Assembly: GCA_964610975.1 (NCBI GenBank)
Contig: CAZSYN010000002.1
Location: 216,076-280,075, forward strand
Source of the DNA: an uncultured Phycisphaeraceae bacterium
GTDB taxonomy: Bacteria > Planctomycetota > Phycisphaerae > WQYP01
Reading direction: 5' to 3'
Length of the DNA: 64,000 nucleotides
In this document: piece after piece, positions 1 through 61,461 of the stretch
How the letters are laid out: every line of letters begins with the position of its first letter
Position numbering within the stretch: the first letter of the stretch is position 1
Notes under the pieces: model-generated
What the model was told of the DNA's origin: nothing
The model's database searches: none
What the model saw: the letters and a program-made list of their open reading frames with translations, nothing else
Program-made: the position numbers and the translations under genes

Positions 1-531
1 CCACTTTTCCTGCTTGGGGCTGCTGAGCCCGACCCAGAGAATATCAGGCCGAGCCTGATTGATGGCATCAATGCGGCGCTGATCCTCCTGCGCGTAGCCA
101 TCACCAAACGGCGGCGAATAAGTCCCGGCAATCTGAAGTTGCGGGAATTGCGCGACAAGCCGCGAAGCCAGCAAATCAGCAACACCGGGCAGGCCGCCGT
201 AAAAATAATGCCGCCACCCATGACGCACGGATTCCTGGCACATGGCAAAAAGCAGATCCGGGCCATATACGCGGCGCGTGTTGCGGGCGCCGGCCCAGCG
301 GCACAGCCAGACCAGCGGCATACCGTCAGGCGTCACCATGCCTGCACGGTTATGTATGCCGCGCAATTCAAGATCACGCCGGCATCGCATCACGCCGTGC
401 ACATCACGCACGCAAACGTAATTCTGCTCGCGCGCTTTAACCCATCCGGCAATCGTCTCAACGGCCTGAGTCATATCAATCGCACTGATGCCGACTCCCA
501 GAACATTCACACGATGAATTGAATCAGTCAT
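1..531 (-). CDS. WecB/TagA/CpsF-family (GT26) glycosyltransferase, 3' part runs off window start
   Basis: Minus-strand frame from ATG at 531-529 reads MTDSIHRVNVLGVGISAIDMTQAVETIAGWVKAREQNYVCVRDVHGVM...TPDGMPLVW...YFYGG...LSSPKQEKW without a stop to position 1. This matches the WecG/TagA N-acetylmannosaminyltransferase pattern. The start overlaps the upstream gene's stop by 8 nt. Not in the supplied ORF track, which has no minus-strand ORF over 1-523 (this frame has no stop before position 1). Confidence 0.6.
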   Translation of the reverse strand, partial: MTDSIHRVNVLGVGISAIDMTQAVETIAGWVKAREQNYVCVRDVHGVMRCRRDLELRGIHNRAGMVTPDGMPLVWLCRWAGARNTRRVYGPDLLFAMCQESVRHGWRHYFYGGLPGVADLLASRLVAQFPQLQIAGTYSPPFGDGYAQEDQRRIDAINQARPDILWVGLSSPKQEKW

Positions 532-1879: not shown

Positions 1880-3090
1880 TATGAGTCTCCCGCATTGGCG
1901 CGAATCAGAGACAATCCGCCATTTTGGGGCGGCGCCAGCATATGACTGCGGTGCAATTCGGCCAGCATCAAAGCGAGATACTCATATTGCGCATGCTGCT
2001 TGAGAGAGCGCAGCCCCTCTGATATCAATTCGCCATCATGCTCAAAATCATGACAGACTTGCAGAATATCACTTGGCGTTACGGTGCGTATATCCAGAAC
2101 CGGCAGCTTAAATTGACGAACCAGATCCGCCCGGCTGTCACCTCCGATTGCCAGCGCGGGCCTGTTCATGGATGCGGCCGCGGCCGCCCCGTGAACACGA
2201 TTACAGATCGCAAAATAGGCTTTTGAGTACGCTGCCAGCAGAACTGTGCCCTCCCGACTGCACACCAGCGGCCTGCCGGGAAACCATTGCGCCGCCGTGC
2301 GTGCCTCATCTTCACTATGGCAGACCAAAAGCACGCGATGTTTCTTTTCTATCTGCGGCAGCACCTGCCGTATGGTCTTTTCCCACCGATGCGGATCAAG
2401 CGATTGGCCGCGCGACGTGTGCACACCGGCCGGCATGATGTTGATGGCGACATACTCAGGCGTCTGCGGCCTGATGCCGGCGCCTTCGGAGGCCCACAAT
2501 GAAGTGCACGGCAGCACGGGCACCTGATAACCAAGCTGGGAAAGAATGGTTGCCGTCAATTCGTCACGCGCGGTTATCAGTGCTGTGCGATTCAGTGATT
2601 GATGCAGGAACGAAGTCACGCGCCGATCCGATAAAACATCCTGAATGCGGGAACTATCATCAATGCTGGTGCCGGCCGCGAGATTCATGACGGGTTTATC
2701 CCGCATGACGTGAATTAACCGTCCCCATGTGGGCGACACCCATTCGGCATTGGCGCTTGTGCACGGCAGCACATGCGTGTGCTGTCTGAAAATAAACGGC
2801 GTTCCGGCAAAAACAACAAGATCAGTCCGGGCAAGTTTGTCTGAAGATGTCCCGTTTATAATCCGCATTGCTTGATACAATAGCGGGCTCAGCAGGCGAT
2901 GCGGCGTTCGGCGACGCTGGCAAAAATGCTCATACAATGTCCGAGGATCATGCTTATGCACATAGCTATAATTAACTGAAGGAATAATTTGCTTGAACAG
3001 GTGTTCCTGCCCAAGCCGTATTAATTCATCACCGGGATTGTGATGTAAAGTCGTGATAAACAGGATATTCACAGTACGCGGAGTGTTCAT
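1879..3090 (-). CDS. polysaccharide pyruvyl transferase family protein (CsaB/WcaK-like)
   Basis: Likely start is MNTPRTVNILF... at 3090 (ATGA overlap with the Wzx stop). Has the NPGDELI motif and the C-terminal NRVHGAAAAASMNRPALAIGGDSRADLV block typical of the PS_pyruv_trans family. Confidence 0.55.
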   Translation of the reverse strand: MNTPRTVNILFITTLHHNPGDELIRLGQEHLFKQIIPSVNYSYVHKHDPRTLYEHFCQRRRTPHRLLSPLLYQAMRIINGTSSDKLARTDLVVFAGTPFIFRQHTHVLPCTSANAEWVSPTWGRLIHVMRDKPVMNLAAGTSIDDSSRIQDVLSDRRVTSFLHQSLNRTALITARDELTATILSQLGYQVPVLPCTSLWASEGAGIRPQTPEYVAINIMPAGVHTSRGQSLDPHRWEKTIRQVLPQIEKKHRVLLVCHSEDEARTAAQWFPGRPLVCSREGTVLLAAYSKAYFAICNRVHGAAAAASMNRPALAIGGDSRADLVRQFKLPVLDIRTVTPSDILQVCHDFEHDGELISEGLRSLKQHAQYEYLALMLAELHRSHMLAPPQNGGLSLIRANAGDS

Positions 3091-4367
3091 GCCGCTTGCT
3101 CCAGTATGGGCCGCTGGCTTGCCGCGCGTGCCCGGCGCGCGGCAAGCCAATGCGCCAGAATGAGTGAGAGCGCGCTCTCACACATCATGCCAAACATGGC
3201 CCCGGTCACCCCCCACCATCTGACAAGCGGCACAATGCCGGCCAGCAGCAGAAGTGTTCCGGAAAGCCGGGAAATCAGAACGCCTTCCGGATAGCCTGTC
3301 ATTCCGAGTTGAACAACCAGCAGCGAATTTAATCCGTTCACCAGCGCCAGAAAGCAGTAACCTGCCGCCAGCGGCGCCAGGAAATCAAAATGTTTTTGCA
3401 GGATCACATCCGAAAATGGCCCCGCGGCCAGGCAGGCCGGCACGCCATAACCAAGAGTCAGCAGAATTAAAATGATATACCAGCGCGAGATAAAAACCCC
3501 CATGCCGGATACACCATTTTGACGCCATGCGCGCGATACGCCCGGAATGGTAAATGACGTAATCCCGGCCACCACAACCTGAAGCGGCGCAATGACCTGC
3601 CGCGCAGCTTCAACTCCGGCCAGCGCCGACATTCCGGCGATAGAGCCTGTTGCCATCAGCACGATGCGCCGCGATACAATAATCATGATATTTGAGGGCG
3701 CATACATGCGGGCCACCGGCAGATAGCCGCGCATGACGTCACGCACCTTGAGTGCGGATGCTGGCAAGCGGCGGAGTTTTATAGCCGAAAAAAAATATCC
3801 CGCCGCCGCGCCGACGGATAACGCAACAAGGCCGGCGTAAAGCGCGGAGTATTTTACCATATGACACAGGATCAGCGCGGCCACGGATATTGCGGCATAA
3901 CCAATATCCGCAAGCAACACAGACCTGCCGTCATTGATGCAAAATAAGATGCGGCGATTTATCTCGTGCAGAGTTGTCATCAACATGACCGGCGATATCA
4001 GCAAGGCCGCCATCACATTGGGGCTGAACTTCCCTTCTGCCCACCACATCACACAGGCGCACAATAACGCCGCGACGGCAAGAATCACTCCGTATAGCGC
4101 AGAAAGGATGCGTGTCGGCCGAAATATTTCCGGCTCATGCCTCATGCTCATCGGCAGCCAGATTGCGCCGCGATGAAGATCCGCCGCCCCAAGTACGATC
4201 AACAACAAAAATGCATATAAACCAAGATCCAGCTTGCTTGCGTATCTGCCGACATAAAGTCCCATGATAAAATTTGCGCCTGAATACACAATCTGATCGG
4301 CCATCGCCACAACGGCCGAATGCCGCCAGAGCGAGACGTATTTTGAAATTAAACGTTCAGGTGTCAT
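3087..4367 (-). CDS. wzx: oligosaccharide flippase (Wzx / MOP superfamily polysaccharide biosynthesis protein)
   Basis: 426 aa, about 12 TM helices. Sits among Wzy, glycosyltransferase and Wzc genes; composition is typical of Wzx/RfbX flippases. Confidence 0.55.
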   Translation of the reverse strand: MTPERLISKYVSLWRHSAVVAMADQIVYSGANFIMGLYVGRYASKLDLGLYAFLLLIVLGAADLHRGAIWLPMSMRHEPEIFRPTRILSALYGVILAVAALLCACVMWWAEGKFSPNVMAALLISPVMLMTTLHEINRRILFCINDGRSVLLADIGYAAISVAALILCHMVKYSALYAGLVALSVGAAAGYFFSAIKLRRLPASALKVRDVMRGYLPVARMYAPSNIMIIVSRRIVLMATGSIAGMSALAGVEAARQVIAPLQVVVAGITSFTIPGVSRAWRQNGVSGMGVFISRWYIILILLTLGYGVPACLAAGPFSDVILQKHFDFLAPLAAGYCFLALVNGLNSLLVVQLGMTGYPEGVLISRLSGTLLLLAGIVPLVRWWGVTGAMFGMMCESALSLILAHWLAARRARAASQRPILEQAA

Positions 4368-4382
4368 ACGTAATCACTTCCG

Positions 4383-5582
4383 TTATGCCGATTGATACGT
4401 CCATTTAGCATGGCGCGGCCGTGATGACTTGAGCTGCGCCAGCGCATGCAGCAACTGGTTTTTCACCATCTGCGAAGTCAGCAACTGCATGCAGATCGGA
4501 GCGCGATGTATGCAGCGATCAAAACACGGCCGGCACGGCATCGGCTCAACCATCACCACGGAATCACATTTTCCGCTGGGGCCAAACAATCGTGGGCATG
4601 CCGGTCCGTAAATGCCGACAACCCGGCTGCCGCATGCCGATGCCAGATGCAGAACGCCGCCATCAACGGCGAGGGTAATGTCCACCGCGTGCAGCAAACC
4701 TTTAAGGTCACTCAGTTTCGTCTGCCAGGGTATCAGCAGAATATGTTTGGGCACTCTTACCGTGGGGAGTTTTTCATGAGGCTCAAGAACCCATATGACC
4801 GCACCGATATATTCCGGCAGATCCTCAAGCACCTGCTCAAACTGACTCACGGGCCACTTGCGAATCGGATTCCCCGCGCCATTGCTGACGGCCAGTATCA
4901 ACCCATTGCGGTATCCCTGTTTTCGCAATACACCAAGCGCACGGCAGGTGCTGTGCATATCGGCGTTCATCACGGGAAGATCATCAGTTTTTTGGCCCGT
5001 TATTTTCTCTGCGGCGGCAACCGCGTCATGCCGCGTATGCCAGGGTTCTGATAAATGCGGCGGCCGGCCCAAATTCAAATCAAGCCAATATTTTCCGCCG
5101 GAAGCGCCGTAGGCCGCTTTAGCCCGCGCGGATAACAACGCCAACTGCATCAATTCGCGCGGATCATGTCTGATGCTGATGAGCAAATCCCACGAGTGCG
5201 TCCTGAGAGCGCGAAGCTGCTGTAAAAATACGCGCCATTCTTTTTTCCAGAAACGATATTTTCCTGTGTACTGTGTCCACGGCGGAACCAGCACGTGAAC
5301 TTGGTCGCACAATCCGGTATCAACAAACAGGTCATTCAGCCACGGTTTACCGATGAGTTCAATGGACGCTTTCGGCCAGCGTTTTCGCAAGCCTGCCAAA
5401 AGCGGCTGCGCCAATATCGCATCACCGATGCCCCACTGCTGAATCACGCCGATTTTCGGAGACAAATGGCCCGAAGACTCAAATGATTTCCACGCGCCGT
5501 GAGGTCTTTTCCCAAACCATGAGATCACATCGGCAATCTTGGTCATCATATGAATTTTGTCATCACGCCGAGACATGGCCAT
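4383..5582 (-). CDS. glycosyltransferase family 9 (heptosyltransferase-like)
   Basis: Has GIGDAILAQPLL near the N-terminus and LAVDGGVLHLASACGSRVVGIYGP near the C-terminus (GT9 RfaF/RfaC-type motifs). Probable start is MAMSRRDDK at 5582, which overlaps the CpsB stop as TGATG. Carries a Cys-rich C-terminal tail. Confidence 0.6.
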   Translation of the reverse strand: MAMSRRDDKIHMMTKIADVISWFGKRPHGAWKSFESSGHLSPKIGVIQQWGIGDAILAQPLLAGLRKRWPKASIELIGKPWLNDLFVDTGLCDQVHVLVPPWTQYTGKYRFWKKEWRVFLQQLRALRTHSWDLLISIRHDPRELMQLALLSARAKAAYGASGGKYWLDLNLGRPPHLSEPWHTRHDAVAAAEKITGQKTDDLPVMNADMHSTCRALGVLRKQGYRNGLILAVSNGAGNPIRKWPVSQFEQVLEDLPEYIGAVIWVLEPHEKLPTVRVPKHILLIPWQTKLSDLKGLLHAVDITLAVDGGVLHLASACGSRVVGIYGPACPRLFGPSGKCDSVVMVEPMPCRPCFDRCIHRAPICMQLLTSQMVKNQLLHALAQLKSSRPRHAKWTYQSA

Positions 5583-6406
5583 CACCGCCGATTCATTTCG
5601 TGCTCGCCAGGCGAGCGGGAAGGAGCAATGTTGCATTTCTCATACACCGGCTCATTATTCATCAGCCGTTGCTGCAAATCATAATTGAATGCATCCCCGG
5701 CATGGCGCCCCAGCCATTGCCACGCATCGCGAATCACCTCCAGATGTTCCTGCTTGTGCAGATCACTTCCCACCAAATCAATTAATCCGGCGCGCAATAA
5801 TTTTCGTGCGATATGCGCCGCTTTTGGCCCATACTGACCGACAAAAGATCCCAGGTTCACCTGAAGTTTAACCCCCGCCTCGCGCCAATCCCGGCAAACA
5901 TTCAGATCATTCATATTCTGAATAAATGCGTATCGTTCAACATGCGCCAACACGGGAGTGATGTTCAAATCGCAGCATTGATTGATAAACCGCTCAAAAT
6001 AAACAGGCAGATCATATTTCGGCAATTCAAACAGCAGCATGCGGCCATGTTGATTCAGATACAAAAGCTCATGGACGCGCTCGCGAAAATAATCCACCAT
6101 CTGCGCGTCCAGGAAATATTCCGCAGCAAGCCGCAAATGAAATTCAGGAAACATTTCGTGCGCGGCGGCTGACATTTTTTCAAATTGTCCCCGCAGGCTC
6201 GCTTCTGTATTTCTAAAAACATCCGCATAAATATGCGGCGTTAAAATCGCGCCGGAATATCTCAATGCCAAAAGGCCATGAATGCAGCGCAGCATATCCT
6301 CCTGCGTTGCCGCGCCGTCATCGACATTTGGCAAAAGGTGGCAATGCATGTCATAACGCACGCTCGCCGCATTTAGTTTTGCCTGAAAGACAGAAAACAA
6401 ATTCAA
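5582..6406 (-). CDS. PHP-family manganese-dependent protein-tyrosine phosphatase (CpsB/CapC/YwqE type)
   Basis: N-terminal DMHCHLLPNVDDGA matches the CpsB signature DIHCHILPGIDDG. Has a further His/Asp-containing PHP-fold block. Lies immediately downstream of the Wzc kinase. Confidence 0.7.
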   Translation of the reverse strand: MNLFSVFQAKLNAASVRYDMHCHLLPNVDDGAATQEDMLRCIHGLLALRYSGAILTPHIYADVFRNTEASLRGQFEKMSAAAHEMFPEFHLRLAAEYFLDAQMVDYFRERVHELLYLNQHGRMLLFELPKYDLPVYFERFINQCCDLNITPVLAHVERYAFIQNMNDLNVCRDWREAGVKLQVNLGSFVGQYGPKAAHIARKLLRAGLIDLVGSDLHKQEHLEVIRDAWQWLGRHAGDAFNYDLQQRLMNNEPVYEKCNIAPSRSPGEHEMNRR

Positions 6407-6468
6407 GACAATCTCCCCATGATCATCCCGTCATCAACAACTCTTCGCGCGCCGATTTCAGCGCATCA

Positions 6469-8874
6469 TCATTTTTGTGCGTACTGCCGGCTCTGCATTT
6501 TGGTCACAATTTTTCCTGTCGCCTGGCCTGATTCATTGCCGTATCCATAACCATAGCCATATGCGGCATGAGATCCCGTTGAGTTAACAATCAACCCCAC
6601 ATGACGGTTAACGGCCTGCAATTCATCAACATGATGGCGGAATCCGTTGCGCAATGTCTTTTTAAGCCGGCACACGCACAGGATGCGATTGACCTGTTCC
6701 GCCAGGATCAGCGCCGTTGTGGTGGCCGGATATGGCGGCGCATCAAGGACGGTAAAGCTGTAATGTTCGCGGGCATAATCAATCAATTGCTGCATGCCCG
6801 GCGATTCAATCAATTCAACTGGCGATGGCGGCGTGGGCCCGGCGCATATCAAATCAAATTCACGCCCATCCGGCAGACTCACCGTTCGTATTATCTGTTC
6901 AAGCGAAGCCTGGCTGTTCAGATATTCCGACAGGCCCGGGCTCACCGGTTGTTCAAAAATATCCGCCAGTGATTGTTTATGCATATCGCAATCAATGAGT
7001 AAAACGCGATCAACACGTTCAGAGCGGCACAGCGTGGCCGCAAGATTGACCGAAATTGTCGTTTTCCCTTCTCCCGGCATTGAGCTTGTCAGCATCACAA
7101 TCTGAGATTTTTTCCCGGCCATTGAGTGAAGCAGATTGGTCCTGAGCTGGCGGATTGATTCAAGAAACGGACTTTGCATTTTAAGATCAATCGTTTCGCG
7201 CGAAGCCCTGCGCAAACGCCGGCCACGGCCGGGAACAACGGCAAAAACTGGCTGCTCAAAACTATTTTTGATCTGCGTGACATCCGTATAGTAATTGGTC
7301 ATCGCCGTCTTCAGAATCAGCGCGGCAAAAGCGCTGATGGCGCCCAGCGCCACGGCAATCAGCCCGCTGTTGAGCGGTTTGGGAAAGTTCACTTTAAGCG
7401 GCAAAATGGCCTGCCCCACCACGTGCAGATCCGTTGTCGTGCTGGCCACGGCAATCTGCGTATTTTGCTGCTGCTTGAACAGGAACAGATAAAGTTCCTC
7501 ATACAGTTGCGTCGTGCGCATGTGCTCGGCCAGCACGCGAGCCGATATCGGCATCTTTTTGAATTTGGCCTGATATTCATCCACCACGCGGCTTAATTCA
7601 GCGCGATCACTTTGGGTGCGTTCATAGTAACGCTCAAGCGTTTCCTTAAGCTGGGCCTGCGTTTTATTTCGCACTTCAAGGCGGTCTTTCAGAGGCGGAT
7701 ATTCAGAAGAGAACCGCGATTCAAGCGCCGCGATTTCTTTGCTCTGGTCAATCAGATCGCCGGCCAGTTTCTGCAATACCGCGTCATCCATAAACGCATA
7801 CAGATACGCATCGGCATTGGGCTTGTTGATATTTTTCAGCAGGTTCTCCATCTCCGCCAGTTTGACATCCGCTTCTTTAAGCTTGACTTCACTTTCAACA
7901 AGCTGCGTGACCTGGGCCTCAACCTGCGGCTCAAGCGAGATCAGGCCCGATTCACTCTGATAACGCGCCAGGTTTTCCGATGTGCGCGTCAGGTTATTTT
8001 TCAGATCCGCAACCTGGCTGTTCACATATTCAAGAAGAGCCCGCGACGATTCGGTGGCCCATCCCTGTTTGATCCGGCCAAATTCGCTGATGATTCCCGT
8101 CACCACATTTCGGGCAACATACGGCGATTCGGCGGTATAGGATATTTTGATCACATTGCTGGTGCGATTGGCAATTTTGCCGCCTCCGCCGCTGACGTCC
8201 AGCGCTTTTGAAAAATCTTCCAGTAAAAGCGATGCCGGCGTTAATTTCAGCGTCATGTCCGTTCCCGCGGCCACGGGCGTATCCAGATGTTCTCCATTGA
8301 GAATAAACTGGCTCCCGCCGATTTGAACGGGTTTATTGAGTGCGCTTTGAACAACTTTGTCCGGTGATGTCACATCATAAATGGAAAATTTTCTGCCATT
8401 TTCAAACTGTATCCTGTAGGTCCTCACTCCCAGCAGTTCGCCTTCAACGGCCTGAACCCAAATTCCGTTGGCATAGGCGCTGACATCCCGGCTCAGCCAC
8501 TGATTCGCGCTGCGCGGCGTTGACGGAAGATACATGCCCGGCCCGGTAAGCTCGGCATTCAATCCCAGCTTGTTAATCACGGTGATCGCCAGATCACTGC
8601 TGCAAAGCAGATCCTTGTGCGATTCCACATTCTCGCCGCCGGCCCCCAGCAGCGGCATCAGCCCGCCCAGCGCGCTGGCCGAGACATCCGATTTTTCTTC
8701 AATATAAATCGCGCCCGAACTGGTGTATTTGGGCCTGAGAATCGCAAGAACAGACAAAACCAGCAGCATCACCGCCAGCCAGACAATCACGATCCGCCCC
8801 CAGTTCTGGCGGCAGATCATGACAATTTCCCGCAGGGAGATTTCTTTATTTTGTGCGTGATCCTGTTCCGGCAT
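6469..8874 (-). CDS. wzc: polysaccharide co-polymerase / BY-kinase (Wzc / GumC-EpsB fusion type)
   Basis: 801 aa. N-terminal TM, a Wzz-like periplasmic coiled-coil region and a second TM. Cytoplasmic Walker A (SSMPGEGKTTISVNLA), A' (LLIDCDMHKQS) and B (FTVLDAPP) motifs. C-terminal tyrosine cluster YGYGYGYG. Confidence 0.85.
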   Translation of the reverse strand: MPEQDHAQNKEISLREIVMICRQNWGRIVIVWLAVMLLVLSVLAILRPKYTSSGAIYIEEKSDVSASALGGLMPLLGAGGENVESHKDLLCSSDLAITVINKLGLNAELTGPGMYLPSTPRSANQWLSRDVSAYANGIWVQAVEGELLGVRTYRIQFENGRKFSIYDVTSPDKVVQSALNKPVQIGGSQFILNGEHLDTPVAAGTDMTLKLTPASLLLEDFSKALDVSGGGGKIANRTSNVIKISYTAESPYVARNVVTGIISEFGRIKQGWATESSRALLEYVNSQVADLKNNLTRTSENLARYQSESGLISLEPQVEAQVTQLVESEVKLKEADVKLAEMENLLKNINKPNADAYLYAFMDDAVLQKLAGDLIDQSKEIAALESRFSSEYPPLKDRLEVRNKTQAQLKETLERYYERTQSDRAELSRVVDEYQAKFKKMPISARVLAEHMRTTQLYEELYLFLFKQQQNTQIAVASTTTDLHVVGQAILPLKVNFPKPLNSGLIAVALGAISAFAALILKTAMTNYYTDVTQIKNSFEQPVFAVVPGRGRRLRRASRETIDLKMQSPFLESIRQLRTNLLHSMAGKKSQIVMLTSSMPGEGKTTISVNLAATLCRSERVDRVLLIDCDMHKQSLADIFEQPVSPGLSEYLNSQASLEQIIRTVSLPDGREFDLICAGPTPPSPVELIESPGMQQLIDYAREHYSFTVLDAPPYPATTTALILAEQVNRILCVCRLKKTLRNGFRHHVDELQAVNRHVGLIVNSTGSHAAYGYGYGYGNESGQATGKIVTKMQSRQYAQK

Positions 8875-8891
8875 ATGCGTATTTACCCACC

Positions 8892-10511
8892 TTAAAAATC
8901 AAGGCTCAGGCCGATATTCCCGATCGGCACAACGGATGCTTCTCCGGTACCGTTCGCCTTGCTCAGATCTCTGGCGGAATCTCCCAGCACCATCACATGG
9001 CATCCCAAAGTCAGCATCCAGCGAAAACTCCGACCGCCATCGGCCGGTATGTTTGCCAGCGGAATTTTCAAATCAACGCCCGTCTCAAAGTAACCAAAAA
9101 AATCATCGTGTCCGGTGGTATCTTCGTAATAATTGGCAAGACTCATGCCGACCCTGGCGGGCACCGCCATCATCACCGGCTTATCAGGCGAAAGATCAAA
9201 AAGTTTGAACTCAGGCCGCGCGCCCAGTTCAAGATACGTTCCCGTCTGAAAACGGGAACTTGTGGAATTGGCATTTGAAATCCACCCGCCATCCGATTGA
9301 TTTTCGTATTCAACTGAAACAGTGGCGTAAGGATTAAGACTCCAGTTGTAGTTGGGATCGCGATCATCAAAAGCCAGCGTGAAATTAAACTGATGAACAT
9401 CACGATACGCCGTTCGGATGGACTCCATGTTGTCATAATCAATGGTAAAGGCCCATCTTTGCAGGAACCCAAAGGTCACGCCGCCATACCAGTCAAATTC
9501 CTGCCATTTTTCGCCGGTTGTTCCGTCCCCGCCGTAGGGCCCCCAGAAATGTCCGCCGCGGAAACCAAAATTCAGATCCACATAATCCAGAACGTTGTTC
9601 GGCTCGGTACTCCACGAATTATCAAAAATTCGCAACCTGGTGGCCAGCCAGGGCTCAAGGATAATATTCTGATTTTCGCGCCCGATTCCGCGGTAGTAGT
9701 ATGCGCTCATGGTATCAACCCCGGCCGAGAGCGAGAGCCGCCAGCGATCCTTATGTTCTATGATTTCGCTGTTATCTCCCGGCACCGCCCCCATCGTTGT
9801 TGCGGGCTCCGCAACCCGAACGGGTTGAATCATTTCCTGCTCACCAGGCGTTGGCCGCCCCCCTTCCGCAGCGGAAATACGCGTGGACGGAGCAGTTTCA
9901 GATGACGCCTGGCTTGCTGCGTCTCCGAAAACTGCTCGCGCCACGCCAGTGGGGATCTTTGCCCCGCCCCTTGATGATGCCCCTATCAGGACATGGGCAT
10001 ACTGGGCGTCAGGACATGTCAGCGTCAATTCTTCCGCATTATTCTTCAGCACCAGCCCAATCCACCGGCCACGCAAAGACACCATCTCGCGGCCGTTGAC
10101 CGTAACCGACGGACTCTGCGCCGAACCATTCAATTCAATCACATTCCGCCGATCCGGCTCAAGCGGAATTTCAAGAGCCAGCGCCTTCCCTCCCGCTAAA
10201 ACACAGCTCGCCGCATCCGTCAGCATCTCCAGAACAACGCGCTTGTTCTTAAACTCTCCGCTTTTGAGCGACAAAACGGCTTGCTGATTCTGGCCGTCCG
10301 GCACAAAAACCAGCGTGGGATCCGCCTGTGACGAGAACCAGTGCGTATTGACTTGTGCGTCGGAAAGATAAGGGCAATCCGCCATAGCCAAGCAGGCCCC
10401 GCCTGTTTCTATCACCAAAGCCATCGCCACATAACGCGATACGGTGAGCGGCCCCAAAACCTCCTTCATAACCCACATGTGCGACATCCTTATCCTGCCA
10501 TTCATGAACAA
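8892..10511 (-). CDS. hypothetical outer-membrane beta-barrel protein in the EPS locus
   Basis: 539 aa. Signal-like N-terminus (LTVSRYVAMALVIETGGACLAMA). The C-terminal ~330 aa are rich in alternating aromatic/hydrophilic strands and end in ...GLSLDF with a terminal Phe, the OMP beta-barrel signature. No family recognised. Confidence 0.4.
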   Translation of the reverse strand: MFMNGRIRMSHMWVMKEVLGPLTVSRYVAMALVIETGGACLAMADCPYLSDAQVNTHWFSSQADPTLVFVPDGQNQQAVLSLKSGEFKNKRVVLEMLTDAASCVLAGGKALALEIPLEPDRRNVIELNGSAQSPSVTVNGREMVSLRGRWIGLVLKNNAEELTLTCPDAQYAHVLIGASSRGGAKIPTGVARAVFGDAASQASSETAPSTRISAAEGGRPTPGEQEMIQPVRVAEPATTMGAVPGDNSEIIEHKDRWRLSLSAGVDTMSAYYYRGIGRENQNIILEPWLATRLRIFDNSWSTEPNNVLDYVDLNFGFRGGHFWGPYGGDGTTGEKWQEFDWYGGVTFGFLQRWAFTIDYDNMESIRTAYRDVHQFNFTLAFDDRDPNYNWSLNPYATVSVEYENQSDGGWISNANSTSSRFQTGTYLELGARPEFKLFDLSPDKPVMMAVPARVGMSLANYYEDTTGHDDFFGYFETGVDLKIPLANIPADGGRSFRWMLTLGCHVMVLGDSARDLSKANGTGEASVVPIGNIGLSLDF

Positions 10512-10522
10512 TTAAAACTTAC

Positions 10523-11209
10523 TTAATATGCACCGCGACAACCCAATACGGCCGGCACGGTCCGCAGCAGAATCCCCATATCAAGCAATGGCGACCAGTG
10601 ACGGATGTAATACGTATCAAGATACCGCATGATGTTCGGCCCGCCGTCACTGCGCACCTTCACCTGCCACAGGCCCGTCAACCCGGGCAAAACCGATTGG
10701 CGCAGCGTCCTGAATGAACGCGGAAAATGTTCAAGATGATAAGCCGGCAACGGGCGCGGGCCGATCATGCTCATATGTCCGCAGAGCACATTCCACAATT
10801 GCGGCAATTCGTCCATGCTGCTGCGCCGGATGATTTTCCCGATATACGGCAGCACGCGCGGATCATTCCTGAGCTTCCTTTTTTTGGCCCATTCCCGCGC
10901 AGCTTCAGGATTTTGCTTCAGATGGCGCGCCAATCGTTCCGCCGCATCCGGATACATGGTGCGGATTTTCCAGACGCGAATGATCTGCCCATGCAATCCG
11001 ATTCGCTCCTGGGTAAATAACACCGGCCCTCTGCTGATCAGTTTGATCATCACGCCCAGCACCACCAGCAGCGGCAGCGCCGCCATCAGCATGGGCCAGG
11101 CCACCACAATATCCATACAGCGTTTGATTACCGGAACCCGCGGCATCAACGGCGCTCTGGAGATTTCCATCTCCTCCGCAATTTCAATTTTTGATATCTG
11201 CAATGTCAT
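10523..11209 (-). CDS. undecaprenyl-phosphate sugar phosphotransferase (bacterial sugar transferase, WbaP/WcaJ C-terminal domain type)
   Basis: Has a TM helix (VVAWPMLMAALPLLVVLGVMIKL), then GPVLFTQERIGLHG, DELPQLWNVLCGHMSMIGPRP and TGLWQV (Bac_transf motifs). Start chosen at an internal Met; the track ORF extends to 11260. Confidence 0.8.
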   Translation of the reverse strand: MTLQISKIEIAEEMEISRAPLMPRVPVIKRCMDIVVAWPMLMAALPLLVVLGVMIKLISRGPVLFTQERIGLHGQIIRVWKIRTMYPDAAERLARHLKQNPEAAREWAKKRKLRNDPRVLPYIGKIIRRSSMDELPQLWNVLCGHMSMIGPRPLPAYHLEHFPRSFRTLRQSVLPGLTGLWQVKVRSDGGPNIMRYLDTYYIRHWSPLLDMGILLRTVPAVLGCRGAY

Positions 11210-11620
11210 GCCTGATGATCCCGGTTTTGGTTTTGCGACAATACAACTCCCGTCGGCCATGCATACCGATAAAACTTCCCTTCTTTTTTACTTAAAAAGT
11301 TAAAAGACTTTCGCCAAAAACTTTTTCAATCATCTGAGTGAGGAGTGGGTTTGTCAGATTCTTGAAAATATTGGCCCAATCAGCGGTTATTTCCGGCTGC
11401 TTCAACCTACATAACGGATGATTTTTAATCTTGTTGGTTTTGTTTTTATTTTTTTTTTACGAAACTCACCTCTTATCTTTGTGTTTTAAGAATATAGTGT
11501 GCATGCTCACCATGCCTGTTCATCCATAATTGAAGTGTATTTCTACTTTCTGTGATTATTTTTACACTTTCCGCCAACGCACGCGCCGAAAGTTCGTTCT
11601 TATATGTTGAGGAGAAGGGT

Positions 11621-12157
11621 TTGCCAGATTCGGATGATCAGACATTATCAATTGCCCATCAGCGTGCGCGGCGGGCTCAGGAATGCGTGGATCAGCACTG
11701 GTCTGCGGTGTACTGCATCATGTACCGGCTCACAAATAATACGCACGATGCGGAAGAATTAACGCAGGAAGCCTTTGCGCGCGCGATTGAAAAACTGGAG
11801 CAATACCACAACGGAACGTCCATGCGGGCGTGGATTGTCAGAATTGCGATGAATCATCTGATTGACGGCAAACGGCGCATGCAGCCGATCATCGCCGGCG
11901 ACGATGCCCCCTGGGACCGCCAAACATCCGATCACCGCCAGCTTTCGCAACTTGAAGTTCAGGAACGCAGCAAGTTAATTCAGTCCGCAATCAACCAACT
12001 TCCGCAGACACAAAAAATCGTTTTGATTCTGCGCTCCATGCAGGAATACTCCTTTGAACAGGTTGCGGAAATCATCGGTACTTCTGAGGCCACGGCCAGG
12101 TGGCACATGATGCAGGCACGGCAACATCTGATTCGCATTCTGAATGGACGGGTATAA
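11621..12157 (+). CDS. RNA polymerase sigma-70 factor, ECF subfamily
   Basis: Region 2 (EELTQEAFARAIEKLEQY...WIVRIAMNHLIDGKRR) and region 4 (LPQTQKIVLILRSMQEYSFEQVAEIIGTSEATARWHM). The track ORF begins at GTG 11552. I prefer the in-frame TTG at 11621, which is preceded by GAGGAGAAGG, but the start is uncertain. Confidence 0.75.
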   Translation: MPDSDDQTLSIAHQRARRAQECVDQHWSAVYCIMYRLTNNTHDAEELTQEAFARAIEKLEQYHNGTSMRAWIVRIAMNHLIDGKRRMQPIIAGDDAPWDRQTSDHRQLSQLEVQERSKLIQSAINQLPQTQKIVLILRSMQEYSFEQVAEIIGTSEATARWHMMQARQHLIRILNGRV

Positions 12158-12183
12158 CTTTGGGCGCGTTACGCAGGACAGGC

Positions 12184-14007
12184 ATGAATTGCACGGACAT
12201 ACAAAATCAGTTGCTGACGGCAGACGATCTCAATCGCCTGGCGGATTCCGCATTGGCGGAACATGTCCGCAATTGTCCGCAATGCGCGGAGATGCTCCGC
12301 CAATTATCCTCCATTGAAGCAGCGATTCATGATCTGCCCGCCCCGCCGGAAGCGGAAGATGCAAAAAAAAGATTTCTTGCCAAAATGAATCTTGATGCTT
12401 CAGCGCCTCTCGCGACCCAATCAACGCCCGCAACCCGGCGTTGCTTCGCATGGACAGGCGGGCGCCATCTGGCGCGAGCAGCCATACTCTTGCTCGTGGC
12501 TGGCCTGGTCATCTGGCTGACGTGCATTCAAAATTCCGCAACCGCCCGGGCCGATCGTTATCTGGAGCGGCTGATTGAATGGAATATTAAACTGGCCAAC
12601 ACCCAGCAATCGGCCGAACGCATTAAGCTGCACGATCTTCAGCTAAAAATCTTCCAGCAGGAACTGAAAAACATCAGCCTGACGGATCATCAGAAAAAAA
12701 TCGCGGAATCACTTTTGGTCAGCGCCGGGCAATTGGCTCACAGCGATCTTGCACTTACGCGGTCCAATTTACTCATGCGCCTGGGAGATCAGTTGGCGCA
12801 GGATGCGCTGATTGAAAAAGATTCCGGCCAAGCCGCCACGATGGACATTCTGGCAAAAGGCAGCCGCCAGATTATTACGGAAGGCGCGATTCCCAACTAT
12901 ATTCTTTCCGAAACGGAATTGCTGAATCAAGAGCAGCAGCAGCAACGCCGCCAACTGCATGAGCAAATCCGCAGCCGAATTGAAAATGACAATCACCCCT
13001 CGCAAAATGAACTCAAAGGCGTTCCCAATACGCGCCCCGGGACATCGCCCGGCGGCATTCAATCCGCAACTCCGTCAACCGGCGACGGATATGCCTCCGC
13101 ACCCAATCGGCCGGCGAAAAACACAACGGAAGCAAACGATGCCCCGTCACGCCAACTCCCCGGCGACGGCATCAAGGTCAATCCGCGCGCAGAGTCCTTT
13201 ACCATAAACGCCATCAACGGCCAGCGTATCACCAACAATGCGGGCCAATGGTCATCCATGTTACTGGCCGATGTGACCGGACAAGCCGCCACCCACGCCG
13301 GAGATTCCGGCATCATCTCTGGGATCGCCGGCAATGACATGACCTATTCATTTCGCAATGGCGCATTGATCAATGCCGGCGGTTTTGCGGTTTCAAGCAC
13401 GATGAACATTCGCAACGCAACCAGAGACATGATTCAATTTTCAAACAGATCCTTCGGCGATGCGGCAATACAGTTATATGCCGATAACCAGATTGACGGC
13501 TGCGATCCTATTGATATTGCATATGCACAGAGTCATGGACGCGCGGCCGCATGGGCCGCAACCGGAAACAATACGGACGCGGATAATATCAACACCCTGA
13601 TTCTCGCCCAGTCCCCGAATAAACTATCAGATGTGCAGCTAACCCTCGCTGAGATGCTGAAAATCAAGCAGACCGCCCCTGCCGCGCCCGAACCCACATC
13701 GGACGAAACAAAAGCGGATGCCATTGCCGCCCAGGCATACACGCTGCCTCTGATACAGCGGCTTCTTGCCGCCACTGCGGCCAATACGCCCGAATCAACG
13801 GCAACACAAACCATACCGCAACCCGATCCCGTCCCGGTTGTGCTTGCGGCGGATCTTTCCGCGACATATCCGCTTACCACACCGGACTTCGTCTTTTTAC
13901 CTATGATCACCGCCGTTCCCGAACCCTCTTCGTTGCTTTTGATGCTGCTATCCGCGGGATTATTGATGACGCGCCGTACCCGCAGCGCAACCGGTGATCA
14001 CTCATAA
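12184..14007 (+). CDS. zf-HC2 anti-sigma factor, membrane-anchored, with C-terminal PEP-CTERM sorting signal
   Basis: N-terminus MNCTDIQNQLL...HVRNCPQCAEML is the putative zinc-finger anti-sigma motif. A TM helix follows (AAILLLVAGLVIWLTCI), then a ~450-aa extracytoplasmic Ala/Thr/Gln-rich region. The C-terminus is ...VPEPSSLLLMLLSAGLLMTRRTR, i.e. PEP plus a hydrophobic stretch plus an Arg cluster. Starts 27 nt after the sigma factor's stop. Confidence 0.6.
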   Translation: MNCTDIQNQLLTADDLNRLADSALAEHVRNCPQCAEMLRQLSSIEAAIHDLPAPPEAEDAKKRFLAKMNLDASAPLATQSTPATRRCFAWTGGRHLARAAILLLVAGLVIWLTCIQNSATARADRYLERLIEWNIKLANTQQSAERIKLHDLQLKIFQQELKNISLTDHQKKIAESLLVSAGQLAHSDLALTRSNLLMRLGDQLAQDALIEKDSGQAATMDILAKGSRQIITEGAIPNYILSETELLNQEQQQQRRQLHEQIRSRIENDNHPSQNELKGVPNTRPGTSPGGIQSATPSTGDGYASAPNRPAKNTTEANDAPSRQLPGDGIKVNPRAESFTINAINGQRITNNAGQWSSMLLADVTGQAATHAGDSGIISGIAGNDMTYSFRNGALINAGGFAVSSTMNIRNATRDMIQFSNRSFGDAAIQLYADNQIDGCDPIDIAYAQSHGRAAAWAATGNNTDADNINTLILAQSPNKLSDVQLTLAEMLKIKQTAPAAPEPTSDETKADAIAAQAYTLPLIQRLLAATAANTPESTATQTIPQPDPVPVVLAADLSATYPLTTPDFVFLPMITAVPEPSSLLLMLLSAGLLMTRRTRSATGDHS

Positions 14008-14037
14008 CGCCATTTCAGCAGGATAATAAGAATTAAA

Positions 14038-15162
14038 ATGTTTTATTACAACAATATGTCTAAATTTGTCATTTTGTTCCTGGCGTCGGCCGGCATGTGC
14101 ATGCCCGGCGGATGCTCCATGTGGACCGGCTCAGCCTTCCGGGATAAACAGGTAGAGACGCATACCGCCATCGCCGCCACGCAATCAGCCCAGGCGCAAC
14201 GCACCATCATTCCCGGATCAGACAAAAACGCCGTTGTTGAACTCAAGACCGTGACCATACCGCCGCAGCATCGCGAACCGGCGCCGGGCGATTACATCAT
14301 CGGCCCGAATGACGCTTTATACGTCAATGTTTCAGGCCTGCCGGATATGGGCAGCCCGCTTGCGGGCACGGCCGGAAGCAGGATCATCGGTTCATCCGTG
14401 GACGGCAAAGGCAATATTCAACTTCCTTTGATTCAGAGCGTACACGTGGCGGGCATGACAACATCTCAGGCGCAAACCAAAATCCGCGAAGCTTTTAAGC
14501 CTTTTGTCAAAAACCCCTGGGTCATTGTTGAGGTGGTGGATCATCGCAGCCAGCCCATTTATCTCGTCGGGCAATTCGGGCAGCCTGGCGTATATTACAT
14601 GGATCGGGCCACGGATGTCGTTCAAGCCATCGCAATGGGCAAGGGAATCGCCGCCAATGCGGATCTTCGGGGAGCCTGCATTCAGCGCGGCAAACAGGTA
14701 TTGCCGGTCGATATTTACAGGCTTTTGCGCGAAGGCGATCTTGATCAGAACATCTGGCTCCGGCCGAACGATACGGTATACGTTCCTGATGCATCTGAGC
14801 AGCAGGTATTTGTCTTGGGTTCTGTTGCCAATCCCGGCGTTTATCCCATGCTCAATGGGAAACTGGACCTTCTTCAGGCGCTTTCGCAGGCAAAGGCCGC
14901 GATATCGCCGGGCAGTGCCATGCAGTTTATCCGGATCATCCGTTCGCGCACGCCCACGCGTGGTGAGCTGATCGTGGTAGACGCCAACAAACTCTTGACC
15001 GGCGCGGCATTGCCGTTTCCGCTCATGGGCGGCGATATCGTCTATGTCCCGCGCAGCAAGCTTGGGAGCTGGAATGACATCATGAAAGAAATCCTCCCGT
15101 CCATTCAGGTGGTATCCGCGGTTGTGAACCCATTTGTATCAATCTCAAATTCATCAGATTAG
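14038..15162 (+). CDS. wza: polysaccharide export outer membrane protein (Wza-like; Poly_export + SLBB domains)
   Basis: Lipoprotein-like signal. PGDYIIGPNDALYVNVSG is the Poly_export motif. Later there are soluble-ligand-binding beta-grasp-like repeats. Co-located with wzc. Confidence 0.7.
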   Translation: MFYYNNMSKFVILFLASAGMCMPGGCSMWTGSAFRDKQVETHTAIAATQSAQAQRTIIPGSDKNAVVELKTVTIPPQHREPAPGDYIIGPNDALYVNVSGLPDMGSPLAGTAGSRIIGSSVDGKGNIQLPLIQSVHVAGMTTSQAQTKIREAFKPFVKNPWVIVEVVDHRSQPIYLVGQFGQPGVYYMDRATDVVQAIAMGKGIAANADLRGACIQRGKQVLPVDIYRLLREGDLDQNIWLRPNDTVYVPDASEQQVFVLGSVANPGVYPMLNGKLDLLQALSQAKAAISPGSAMQFIRIIRSRTPTRGELIVVDANKLLTGAALPFPLMGGDIVYVPRSKLGSWNDIMKEILPSIQVVSAVVNPFVSISNSSD

Positions 15163-20790: not shown

Positions 20791-20882
20791 TCTATAGAGC
20801 GTTCATCAAAAGTATTCGGGGCCATCTGCTGGTCTGCCAGCCGATCTGGCTTCCCGCTACCTTTAATACACGCTCTTAGGCC
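20791..20882. mobile_element. MITE-like element, short (~90 bp) internally deleted copy B, inverted relative to copy A
   Basis: The reverse complement of 20848-20882 is cctaagagcgtgtattaaaggtagcgggaagcc, 32 of 33 identical to the copy A left end. The internal ggctggcagaccagcagatggcccc block is shared with copy A. It sits between the secY stop and the adk start, and its terminal repeat contains the secY stop codon. Confidence 0.5.
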
Positions 20883-22363
20883 GCGGGCTGTGATCCGCGA
20901 ACCGGGCCGCCTTTGGTCTTTTTGAGTTTGGCTCCGTTACCGCCATCTTCAAGAAAACCACCGTAGTTACGCATCACAAGGTTTGCTTCAATACGGTTAA
21001 CAAGATCAAGCATCACGCTGATCACAATCAGCAGGCCCGTACCGCCCAAAAAGCTGCTGACAGTGAAGCTGACATCAAAAAACTTATAAACGACAGACGG
21101 GATCACGGCGATCACGCACAAGAATGCCGCGCCGACATACGTCATGCGGTTCATCACATTCTCAAGATACTCGGCCGTGCGCGGACCGGGACGCAAACCC
21201 GGAATAAAGCTGCCGTAATCACGAAGCTGATTGGCCATTTCCTTCGGCTGAAACTGAACGGTATTCCAGAAATAGCTGAAGAAGAAAATCATGCCGATAT
21301 ACATAAATTCGTAAAGGAACTCGCCGATATCAAAACCGCGGCCCAGGGAGATCGTAAACGTGTTGGGCCAGCGATCGACAATCATGCGGATACCCGCATG
21401 CGGGAAGAGCATCAGCGAACTGGCGAAAATGATCGGCATGACGCCAGCGTGGTTGACGCGCAGAGGCAGGTACTGCTTCTGGCCGCCGTAAACCTTGCGG
21501 CCACGCAGATGCTTGGCCTGCTGAATCGGAATGCGGCGCTGAGCCTGCGTAATCAGGATTGAGCCGGCCACGACAAACACAAAGCAGGCTGCCAACACCA
21601 GGACCACAAGCAGACCATACTTCGGCTGGCCGGAGTTCATCATGCGGCCGACATTCTGAAATGCCTCAACAAGATTGCCGCCGAGATGCCAGTCTTTGAA
21701 GAGAATATTAAAGAAATTGGTAAACGCGGATTGAGAGTAAACCTCATGGATTGCGTTGGGCAGGCGGCTGACGATACCGGCCGTGATGATCAGCGATACG
21801 CCGTTGCCGATGCCGTACTGGTCAATCTGCTCGCCAAGCCACATCAGGAACATACTGCCGGCAGTAAGAACCGTCAGGCCCATGACCCAGAACAAAAGCG
21901 GATGATCTTCGCTCATGAACGGATAAAGCAACTCATTGCGGCTTGAGGCCAGGGTCCACATCCACCATCCGCCCTGAATCAGGCAGATCAGCACGGTAAG
22001 GTAACGCGTCCACTCGTTGATTTTGCGAATGCCCGGCTCGCCTTCCTTTTTGAGTTTTTCAAGGCTCGGCACAACCGTGGCCAAAAGCTGCAAGATAATG
22101 GATGCGGAAATGTACGGCATAATGCCCAGGCCGAAAATACGCGACTGGGACAAATCACCGCCGGAGAAGACCGACATGTAATTGGCCAACGCGCCGAAGG
22201 CTGTGTTGGCGCTTTCCTGCGCCTGACGCAGAACGTTTTCGGCATTGACGCCAGGCAAGGGCAAGGCGTAACCGATGCGATACACCACCAGCATGCCGAG
22301 AGTAAAGAGCAGTTTGTTACGCAGTTCCGGAATACGAAACGTGTTCGTGAGCGTTTTAATCAC
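20876..22363 (-). CDS. secY: preprotein translocase subunit SecY
   Basis: MIKTLTNTFRIPELRNKLLFTLGMLVVYRIGYALPLPGVN...; 10 TM helices. 495 aa with a basic C-terminal tail. Confidence 0.9.
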   Translation of the reverse strand: MIKTLTNTFRIPELRNKLLFTLGMLVVYRIGYALPLPGVNAENVLRQAQESANTAFGALANYMSVFSGGDLSQSRIFGLGIMPYISASIILQLLATVVPSLEKLKKEGEPGIRKINEWTRYLTVLICLIQGGWWMWTLASSRNELLYPFMSEDHPLLFWVMGLTVLTAGSMFLMWLGEQIDQYGIGNGVSLIITAGIVSRLPNAIHEVYSQSAFTNFFNILFKDWHLGGNLVEAFQNVGRMMNSGQPKYGLLVVLVLAACFVFVVAGSILITQAQRRIPIQQAKHLRGRKVYGGQKQYLPLRVNHAGVMPIIFASSLMLFPHAGIRMIVDRWPNTFTISLGRGFDIGEFLYEFMYIGMIFFFSYFWNTVQFQPKEMANQLRDYGSFIPGLRPGPRTAEYLENVMNRMTYVGAAFLCVIAVIPSVVYKFFDVSFTVSSFLGGTGLLIVISVMLDLVNRIEANLVMRNYGGFLEDGGNGAKLKKTKGGPVRGSQPAA

Positions 22364-44621: not shown

Positions 44622-44706
44622 GGTCGCGTTTTGGCCCTTCTGTGTTTATAGTGTGGTGTTCCTGATCCTGTTGATTGTAACTTGTATTGCCAGGAAAAAC
44701 AAACGC

Positions 44707-47728: not shown

Positions 47729-47788
47729 TCCATATTATAATAATCTCAAATGTTACGAATGTTTATCCACAGTGGATAAACAGTTCCC

Positions 47789-53610: not shown

Positions 53611-53901
53611 CTCAGACTCATGACCAGAATGGCCGGCAGGTCTTATATTATCATCACAGAATGAGTGGCATTGCGGATGAGATGAGCCAAAGAAAAAGCG
53701 GCCAAAATATTGCTCAATTCAGCCATTTTTGGTTGGCATTATCTCAGAAACAGTGTAAATAATACTTGTAATTTCTGCGAGCAACTCGTTTAACAACCTG
53801 CCGTCAATGTATGTAGTGGGTATCAGGGGAGAAGGCCAAAAGAAGGACTGAGCGCGACCAACAAAGCCGGCGCAGGTACTCTTTTGGTAATTGAGTGGGA
53901 T

Positions 53902-61261: not shown

Positions 61262-61461
61262 GATGACGGTCTGCCTTTCTGCACTCCGGCCATAATCACG
61301 TGGTGACATCCACAACATCCGCCGATGCACGCACGCAACACATATAGGATATAACGCCACTGAGGCTTATGTATTGACAAGACACGTGGCAGATTTGTAA
61401 ATTTCGCGCCGCTATGAACAGGATAACGCGGCCTATGGCAGACGTGCAAAAAAGTAGAGAA

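Follow-up and report, generated by a model that had tools for sequence, protein, structure and literature searches.

A PEP-CTERM-tailed, zinc-motif anti-sigma factor next to an ECF sigma factor in an exopolysaccharide locus of a Phycisphaeraceae bacterium: a candidate exosortase substrate

A 64,000-nt stretch of DNA from an uncultured Phycisphaeraceae bacterium (GenBank assembly GCA_964610975.1, contig CAZSYN010000002.1), called the window throughout, carries on its plus strand, within 11552-15162, a gene pair for an extracytoplasmic function (ECF) sigma factor and a predicted transmembrane (TM) anti-sigma factor with a zinc motif. The pair lies in a locus for exopolysaccharide (EPS), and the anti-sigma factor ends in a PEP-CTERM sequence. 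We propose that this tail is an exosortase substrate whose processing tunes EPS export, and we regard that proposal, taken as a whole, as evenly balanced. Its parts are not equally strong. We are highly confident that the N-terminal domain of the anti-sigma factor would sequester the adjacent sigma factor, and we lean slightly towards the tail being recognised by the exosortase of the organism, while it is rather doubtful that processing alters the stability of the anti-sigma factor and hence the activity of the sigma factor.

Results

The features of the locus, in window coordinates, are the following.

11574..11598, plus strand: putative autoregulated ECF promoter, -35 CCAAC, -10 CGTT, 16-nt spacer
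11621..12157, plus strand: ECF (group IV) sigma factor of the sigma-70 family, 178 aa from TTG 11621
12184..14007, plus strand: transmembrane zinc-motif (ZAS-like) anti-sigma factor with a PEP-CTERM end, 607 aa
12184..12399, plus strand: its predicted cytoplasmic anti-sigma domain, aa 1-72, four helices with C3, H27, C31 and C34, predicted local distance difference test (pLDDT) about 88-97
12466..12537, plus strand: TM1, a predicted signal-anchor helix, aa ~95-118, with an Arg-rich N-terminal (cytoplasmic) flank
12538..12990, plus strand: predicted periplasmic helical bundle, aa 119-269, pLDDT 95-98, common to family members of about 300 aa
13015..13914, plus strand: long variable linker, aa ~278-577, predicted to be disordered (pLDDT <50), unalignable and without conservation
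13915..13983, plus strand: PEP-CTERM domain, aa 578-600 of 607, made up of VPEP, a 14-residue hydrophobic helix and TRRTR, with seven residues beyond
14038..15162, plus strand: Wza-type outer-membrane polysaccharide export protein (OPX), Poly_export and SLBB domains, probably the third gene of the sigma operon

The 607-aa protein starts with MNC...AEHVRNCPQC, that is, C3 followed by H27-x3-C31-x2-C34, and the H/C-x23-26-H-x3-C-x2-C pattern of ZAS factors is thereby found within its N-terminal helical domain. M1 and C3 are invariant among homologues, which confirms the ATG at 12184 as its start. Across 120 family members H27, C31 and C34 are invariant, and C3 is kept in at least 90%. Compared with solved anti-sigma factors, the family profile matches ChrR (2q1z/2z2s) at E 0.007, with H-x3-C-x2-C aligned onto HLSLCDEC, and more weakly DdvA (E 0.41), RsiW (0.44) and 3hug_B (0.54); the NF052375 'antisigma' model scores the protein at 23 bits against a cutoff of 100. 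On the strength of the invariant motif, the weak profile matches to solved ZAS factors and the gene context, we accept the protein as a predicted ZAS-like anti-sigma factor, of a family outside the current domain libraries. It resembles the class I ZAS factors ChrR, RslA, RsiW, RsrA and DdvA in having a Cys/His ligand and, 23 residues later, H-x3-C-x2-C, and resembles ZAS factors also in that its gene lies directly 3' of, and co-oriented with, an ECF sigma gene. As in RsiW and RslA, a TM helix follows the anti-sigma domain.

The hydropathy maximum of the protein is at aa 94-121. In an AlphaFold2 model built on the 120-sequence alignment a helix at 95-139 starts at TM1 and a terminal helix spans 581-594, and the two methods concur on the topology. 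The anti-sigma factor is thus predicted to be a membrane hairpin with both ends in the cytoplasm and about 460 periplasmic residues between them, which is the orientation that a PEP-CTERM domain requires. A preliminary description, made from the DNA alone, had called the periplasmic part a low-complexity region of about 450 aa; this is right for the disordered residues ~278-577, whereas residues 119-269 form a confidently folded bundle, which is probably a sensing or regulatory domain. W133, N134 and R146 of the bundle are invariant in the clade of PEP-bearing relatives described below. A fold search of the model against the PDB gave nothing at E<=0.001, only generic helical bundles; the bundle has no solved relative, and in this the protein is unlike ZAS factors.

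The C-terminal sequence of the anti-sigma factor is AVPEPSSLLLMLLSAGLLMTRRTR, and its closing residues are AVPEPSSLLLMLLSAGLLMTRRTRSATGDHS. The PEP-CTERM end that had been proposed for it stands, since TIGR02595 is passed with 23.3 bits for the whole protein and 29.4 bits for the tail alone (cutoff 16), though Pfam PF07589 is narrowly missed (19.4 against 20.7). The form of the tail, [VI]PEP[AS][ST]...RR(R/K), is also that of three signal-peptide-bearing PEP-CTERM proteins encoded elsewhere in the window.

An exhaustive HMMER scan over 1.84 billion representatives found 267 relatives, and the best 150 of these were inspected. Among them homology is limited to aa 1-~310, and mostly to 1-~260; the typical relative has about 300 aa and a Lys/Arg-rich end, and H-x3-C-x2-C is present in every full-length relative among the matches listed. 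All the longer relatives in this set, eleven out of eleven with at least 500 aa, terminate in PEP, a hydrophobic helix and an Arg/Lys cluster (P0008, P0016, P0035, P0040, P0046, P0060, P0082, P0083, which is truncated, P0098, P0105 and P0117). The joint presence of an anti-sigma domain and a PEP-CTERM tail, which the preliminary description had suggested should be looked for among orthologues, is thus found in 11 distant homologues. Counting the window protein, P579-E580-P581 and the four zinc ligands are invariant in 12/12 clade members, while the 250-300 residues between bundle and PEP cannot be aligned across the clade and overall identity is 20-24%. The TIGR02595 cutoff is reached by six of the twelve tailed proteins, window included, with a further four at 13-14.6 bits.

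A neighbour-joining tree was built from the first 240 residues of 146 family members. The tailed proteins group together in it, with two apparently truncated sequences among them and the window protein, the most divergent of those with a tail, at the edge of the group. The simplest reading of the sequences is that linker and PEP-CTERM would have been gained once, long ago, and then kept, and such retention therefore points to selection on the PEP motif itself and not on a generic anchor. P0016 is NCBI HVT79679.1, titled 'PEP-CTERM sorting domain-containing protein [Phycisphaerae bacterium]'; public annotation catches its tail and misses its anti-sigma nature. Two other routes to homologues were less productive. 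A word-indexed search, with the whole protein as well as with a 12-sequence alignment, returned the query alone, probably swamped by low-complexity words, and an Alteromonas histidine kinase that came up when genome contigs were searched with a close-subclade alignment was rejected as a false positive.

The product of the gene 5' of the anti-sigma gene has Sigma70_r2 (PF04542, E 1.5e-14) and Sigma70_r4_2 (PF08281, E 4.2e-13) and scores 84.7 bits with TIGR02937 (cutoff 42.9). Sigma-2 and sigma-4 are its only sigma regions and it is small (178 aa), as is expected of an ECF factor. All NCBIfam subgroup and equivalog models stay far under their cutoffs, the best being PRK12513 (90.8 against 206) and the Rhodopirellula/Verrucomicrobium family TIGR02989 reaching 60.5 against 124.55, so that these models place the protein in no named ECF subgroup. 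The preliminary description had begun the gene at GTG 11552, and while the ECF identity holds, the start does not. The true start is probably TTG 11621, which has AGGAG 6 nt upstream and agrees with the 178 aa annotated for this gene on independent contigs (Logan). GTG 11552, 69 nt further upstream, is probably too early because the conserved promoter motif at 11574..11598 falls inside that reading.

The pair is contiguous with wza on the same strand, as described earlier; the gap of 30 nt between the second and third genes is as stated then, and the first gap measures 26 nt and not 27. No terminator was predicted on the plus strand across 11000-15500. Because of this and of the short gaps, we read the genes for sigma factor, anti-sigma factor and Wza as one operon that is probably co-transcribed. 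The third product carries Poly_export (PF02563, E 1.2e-19), SLBB_2 (PF22461, E 1.2e-20) and PF10531, which places it among OPX proteins; with PRK15078 it scores 126 bits, under the cutoff of 333.

A motif CCAAC-N16/17-CGTT is common to the DNA 5' of the sigma genes in four lineages, and none of 30 shuffles gave a shared bipartite motif of 5+4 bases. Its first base lies 47-54 nt ahead of the sigma start codon in the window and in the loci L003/L004, L006, L008 and L014 of tailed relatives; L013 has CATT in place of CGTT at the equivalent position. AAC at -35 and CGT at -10 are the hallmark of ECF promoters, and we think it very probable that the motif at 11574..11598 serves the sigma, anti-sigma and wza operon as its autoregulated promoter. 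Two further exact matches lie in the window.

11413..11437, minus strand: second copy of the motif (CCAAC-N16-CGTT), facing the EPS operon
8446..8471, minus strand: third exact match, in the 5' portion of wzc, reading in the direction of the EPS operon

The first EPS gene starts 153-204 nt downstream of the opposite-strand copy. Such a copy, which lies another 50-190 nt upstream and is directed away from the sigma gene, occurs in five of six loci (the window, L003, L006, L013 and L014, not L008), and in L003 (21.7 kb) and L006 (12.3 kb) the two sites are the only motif matches in the locus. The probability that a given strand has a match by chance within 250 nt is estimated at ~0.002 per locus, and this low value, together with the recurrence in several independent lineages, argues that the opposite-strand copy is not there by chance. 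In L003 it is followed downstream by a gene for a 401-aa secreted-looking protein, and in L006, L013 and L014 it may drive an ECF-dependent small RNA. From these sites we infer that the sigma factor would drive the operon in which it is encoded, with wza, and the divergent EPS operon probably as well.

All three window matches lie inside the sigma/EPS locus and are aimed at its genes. The one in wzc may be an internal promoter or the roughly one hit expected by chance. In a leave-one-out position weight matrix the wzc site is the top-scoring one of the window, the promoter of the sigma gene itself ranks 19th of ~128,000 positions, and the EPS-facing copy is outside the top 25; this matrix was built from few, partly related sites and is unreliable for regulon prediction, and the exact core motif and its positional conservation were used instead. 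A CCAAC-N15-CGTT at 50603..50626 on the minus strand, 165 nt 5' of a dockerin PEP-CTERM gene, was set aside as probably a chance occurrence; its spacer is one base short, and it falls inside the 3' end of a pilin-like gene at 50544..51629.

The EPS operon, of the Wzx/Wzy type, diverges from the sigma gene as had been stated.

1..11209, minus strand: the EPS operon, nine genes
10523..11209, minus strand: Bac_transf priming transferase, EPS gene 1, start at 11209 or 11260
8892..10487, minus strand: 531-aa protein of no family, EPS gene 2, without Pfam or NCBIfam match
6469..8874, minus strand: Wzc tyrosine kinase
5582..6406, minus strand: CpsB phosphatase
4383..5582, minus strand: GT9 glycosyltransferase
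3087..4367, minus strand: 426-aa protein with 9-10 predicted TM segments, Wzx candidate
1879..3090, minus strand: pyruvyl transferase
524..1879, minus strand: Wzy
from the window start, minus strand: WecG-type glycosyltransferase, cut off by the window start

The ten translationally coupled genes of the preliminary description could not be recovered; we count nine, and four junctions overlap while the other four have gaps of 15-62 nt. The sole component lacking from this operon is wza, and Wza is what the gene 3' of the anti-sigma gene encodes. The 426-aa multi-TM protein has no Pfam or NCBIfam match even at E<=10. By elimination it would be the missing Wzx flippase, and an unusual exosortase would formally still be compatible with it.

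In the eight other loci with a tailed anti-sigma gene a sigma-sized gene lies immediately 5' of it (8/8, gap -4 to +13 nt); with the window the gap ranges from -4 to +26 nt in nine loci. Sigma domains are recorded in seven of the nine, that is, in six of the eight others, P0035 and P0040 being without Pfam data. The partner sigma factors that were read share 40-59% identity between lineages, and the window sigma factor is 40-48% identical to the others. Other neighbours are BON/YflT-like proteins, TruD and PLD.

The three further PEP-CTERM proteins that had been noticed in the window each pass TIGR02595, and all have signal-peptide-like N-termini.

46994..47728, minus strand: PEP-CTERM protein, 244 aa, TIGR02595 22.3 bits
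47789..50440, minus strand: PEP-CTERM protein with a dockerin type I domain, 883 aa, TIGR02595 21.3 bits, PF07589 21.1 (gathering cutoff 20.7)
53884..54801, plus strand: PEP-CTERM trypsin-like serine protease, 305 aa, TIGR02595 23.5 bits

Four PEP-CTERM proteins among roughly 50 window genes suggest that the sorting system is heavily used in this organism. Every genome that was PEP-CTERM-positive in the profile of Haft also had a homologue of EpsH/exosortase (Haft 2006, PMC1569441). Our check for an exosortase covered the multi-TM open reading frames of the window, which are Wzy_C, PAP2, PMT_2, GDSL and the one 426-aa protein without a match; a further multi-TM frame at 20876..22363 on the minus strand was outside the family scan and is a SecY candidate by its place in a ribosomal-protein cluster.

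Discussion

We hypothesize the following course of events. The sigma factor would autoregulate the operon that carries wza and, via the divergent copy of the motif, would also drive the nine-gene EPS operon. By analogy with sortase, archaeosortase and rhombosortase, an exosortase would remove the C-terminal helix of the anti-sigma factor and join the new C-terminus to an acceptor in the envelope or associated with EPS, so that TM1 would hold the processed protein in the inner membrane while a tether would fix its far end. How readily this protein yields to site-1/site-2 proteolysis would then vary with the condition of the exosortase/EPS pathway, and in this way the EPS export genes would be tuned. 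The exosortase would either act upstream of site-1/site-2 proteolysis or make a tether whose loss or strain is the signal. It is also conceivable, if unlikely, that exosortase load or capacity is itself an input to the ECF pathway, with tail processing, or competition for it, setting the stability of the anti-sigma factor and the bidirectional promoter reporting it.

The shorter route of the preliminary description, in which cleavage by exosortase releases the sigma factor, disagrees with the topology. A cut at PEP (aa 578-581) takes only the last ~25 residues, and the zinc domain stays on TM1 with about 460 periplasmic residues, therefore at least one further step is needed; according to the model, exosortase cleavage alone cannot free the sigma factor. 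A cut that close to the C-terminus is not equivalent to the membrane-near site-1 cut of RseA or RsiW. No protease partner was identified for the window anti-sigma factor, and a gene for an S49 peptidase does follow the anti-sigma gene in one subclade.

A number of observations weigh against our proposal. The match of the 607-aa protein is, unlike that of ZAS factors, too weak for Pfam zf-HC2 (PF13490), which finds nothing in it at E<=1 and matches 0/120 family members at E<=0.01. When the product of 12184-14007 is run against the two models that had been named for it, TIGR02595 is positive and zf-HC2 negative. The anti-sigma factor is moreover no typical substrate. Canonical PEP-CTERM proteins are surface cargo, and 97% possess a signal peptide that is cleaved off and lack any further TM segment (Haft 2006, PMC1569441), whereas the window protein lacks a cleavable signal peptide and begins with a cytoplasmic regulatory zinc domain of about 90 aa followed by the signal-anchor at aa 95-118, so that the protein is not simply releasable. 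Because this N-terminus is unlike that of canonical substrates, processing of the anti-sigma factor is an extrapolation. Half of the clade tails are under the TIGR02595 cutoff. No exosortase gene was found among the proteins of the window and of the 10 kb to its left, and none is linked to the module in the eight other loci. Neither wza nor other EPS genes lie beside the pair in those eight loci; the conserved unit is the sigma/anti-sigma pair, and that it sits in an EPS locus is peculiar to this organism. The coupling to EPS is therefore local, and the general signal of the family may be something else. As to the promoter, the three motif matches in the window compare with 1.15 expected and are not significant alone, and no annotated gene faces the divergent copy in L006, L013 and L014.

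Several of these points would also be explained if the tail were a mere second membrane anchor that is never cut, and the pair an ordinary one that senses an unrelated envelope signal through the helical domain. This we consider improbable, but it is the alternative that survives best. The helical, sensing-type domain is common to relatives of about 300 aa without any tail, and the tails below the cutoff, the absence of the signal peptide of typical substrates and the lack of an exosortase gene near any of the nine loci all agree with it. A mere anchor would however need no motif, yet P-E-P is invariant in the whole clade next to 250-300 residues that cannot be aligned, and the tail of the window protein, at 29.4 bits, outscores the neighbouring secreted PEP-CTERM proteins (21-23.5 bits). 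If the anchor explanation is right, what is left of the finding is an anti-sigma family that lacks annotation and has a conserved bidirectional promoter.

A second alternative, which we think still more doubtful, accepts exosortase processing as a constitutive maturation step that makes a trans-envelope tether, the signal being its loss or strain in a FecR-like manner. With its 250-300 aa the disordered linker could reach across a wide periplasm, the operon contains wza and an ECF-type motif faces the EPS operon, and in the model of Haft 2006 (PMC1569441) PEP-CTERM cargo is handed to an acceptor bound for the EPS layer. On the other hand, the acceptor of exosortase and the tether itself are both putative, and EPS genes are missing from the other eight loci. 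The last explanation, an artefact in which mis-assembly or a frameshift fused an anti-sigma gene with a PEP-CTERM gene, or in which the C-terminal resemblance is fortuitous, could appeal to the low confidence and missing homologues of the central ~300 residues, but its probability is negligible and it is refuted by the identical 607-aa product on three independently assembled contigs, by the eleven distant homologues of the same architecture (from NCBI, JGI, ENA and Logan) and by the name that NCBI had already given to HVT79679.1.

Our preferred reading, a ZAS-like anti-sigma factor with a processed PEP-CTERM tail, joins parts of several known systems. With the PEP-CTERM/exosortase (EpsH, Xrt) system it shares the PEP, the short helix and the basic cluster, several such proteins nearby and the classical association with an EPS locus (Haft 2006, PMC1569441). 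A dedicated transcription system tied to PEP-CTERM/EPS loci is also known from Proteobacteria in the form of PrsK/PrsR/PrsT, which is however a two-component system with sigma-54 and an enhancer site and without PEP-CTERM on its regulators, whereas the window has an ECF sigma factor and a tailed regulator. Rhodopirellula baltica, the sole planctomycete in the table of Haft, has PEP-CTERM proteins and EpsH and lacks the proteobacterial PrsK/PrsR/PrsT regulators, and further regulators of PEP-CTERM systems remained to be found according to that study (Haft 2006, PMC1569441).

As in RseA/DegS/RseP and RsiW/PrsW/RasP, the anti-sigma factor would span the membrane and have a large extracytoplasmic part that sets its stability. 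In FecR and in RsgI/SigI of Clostridia the far end touches a component of the outer envelope or a polysaccharide. None of the RseA, RsiW, FecR and RsgI systems is known to use a sortase-family enzyme, which is what we propose for the window protein, and we know of no described ZAS factor that has a C-terminal sorting signal or a second TM helix. That the arrangement is undescribed, as the preliminary description supposed, agrees with a full-text search of the literature, in which PEP-CTERM or exosortase was paired with anti-sigma or ECF factors only in incidental co-mentions or not at all. The ECF sigma factor, the ZAS-like anti-sigma factor, PEP-CTERM and Wza are thus all known parts; a regulator that bears a sorting signal and is conserved in a clade is, as far as we can tell, undescribed, and so is the bidirectional CCAAC-N16/17-CGTT promoter.

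With this clade the known architectures of ECF anti-sigma factors gain a new kind of extracytoplasmic module. If the exosortase does provide the input to the ECF pathway, the arrangement would supply the missing regulator of PEP-CTERM and EPS outside Proteobacteria and the first C-terminal sorting signal used for signal transduction. The tailed clade and the promoter motif give a testable handle on the mechanism of exosortases and on the control of PEP-CTERM/EPS systems outside Proteobacteria: a transcriptional reporter of how active the exosortase is, a defined substrate that can be read out in the cytoplasm, and a candidate regulator of EPS export in Planctomycetota. This should be of interest for ECF signalling, for exosortases and for the envelopes of planctomycetes.

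Additional observations

In the subclade of P0060, P0082 and P0098 a gene for a membrane protease of about 600 aa, of the S49 (SppA-like, signal-peptide-peptidase) family, always lies directly 3' of the anti-sigma gene. It is a candidate degrader of the anti-sigma factor or of its cleaved C-terminal helix.

L008, 11289..13130: S49 protease gene
L013, 2634..4457: S49 protease gene
L014, 2647..4455: S49 protease gene

Some features were noted in the DNA that the divergent motif copy faces. In L006 this region lies at ~5975..6197 on the minus strand, and ~180 nt downstream of the copy it ends in a strong hairpin followed by a T-run. A conserved GC-rich hairpin, GGGCGCGATCCTYGTGGTYGCGCTC, is common to L013, L014 and L008.

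L013, 1..230, minus strand: region facing the divergent copy, no annotated gene
L014, 1..270, minus strand: region facing the divergent copy, no annotated gene

The last residues of the 531-aa protein of the second EPS gene are ...GNIGLSLDF. Outer-membrane beta-barrels typically have a terminal Phe, and this protein may be a novel part of the EPS machinery in the outer membrane. Adjoining the pair of PEP-CTERM genes at 46994..50440 are those for a PAP2 phosphatase (43797..44621, minus strand) and for a 723-aa PMT_2 membrane glycosyltransferase (44611..46782, plus strand). The latter, a GT-C enzyme resembling protein-mannosyltransferase and ArnT, could glycosylate surface proteins or lipids.

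A second protein with an ECF sigma region is encoded at 58268..61360 on the minus strand. It has 1030 aa, an N-terminal ECF sigma part (TIGR02937 44.4 bits against 42.9, Sigma70_r4_2 at aa 146-197), one predicted TM segment at ~257 and a membrane-spanning C-terminal extension of ~770 aa without family matches. At 41972..43771 on the plus strand a 599-aa protein joins an alpha/beta-hydrolase fold (Abhydrolase_1, possibly MetX-like) to MetW, which are usually separate proteins, and a 431-aa open reading frame (40629..41924) adjoins its gene. Scans of the 64-kb window for tRNA and Rfam families gave no match. The nearest named relatives of the ribosomal protein S3 of the window are 81% identical and come from metagenome-assembled genomes of Phycisphaerales/Phycisphaerae. 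Even among the ribosomal proteins of the genome most are singletons when 15 billion proteins are compared at 90% identity, the GTDB species representatives that were searched do not include the genome, and its lineage, the Phycisphaerae, is poorly sampled.

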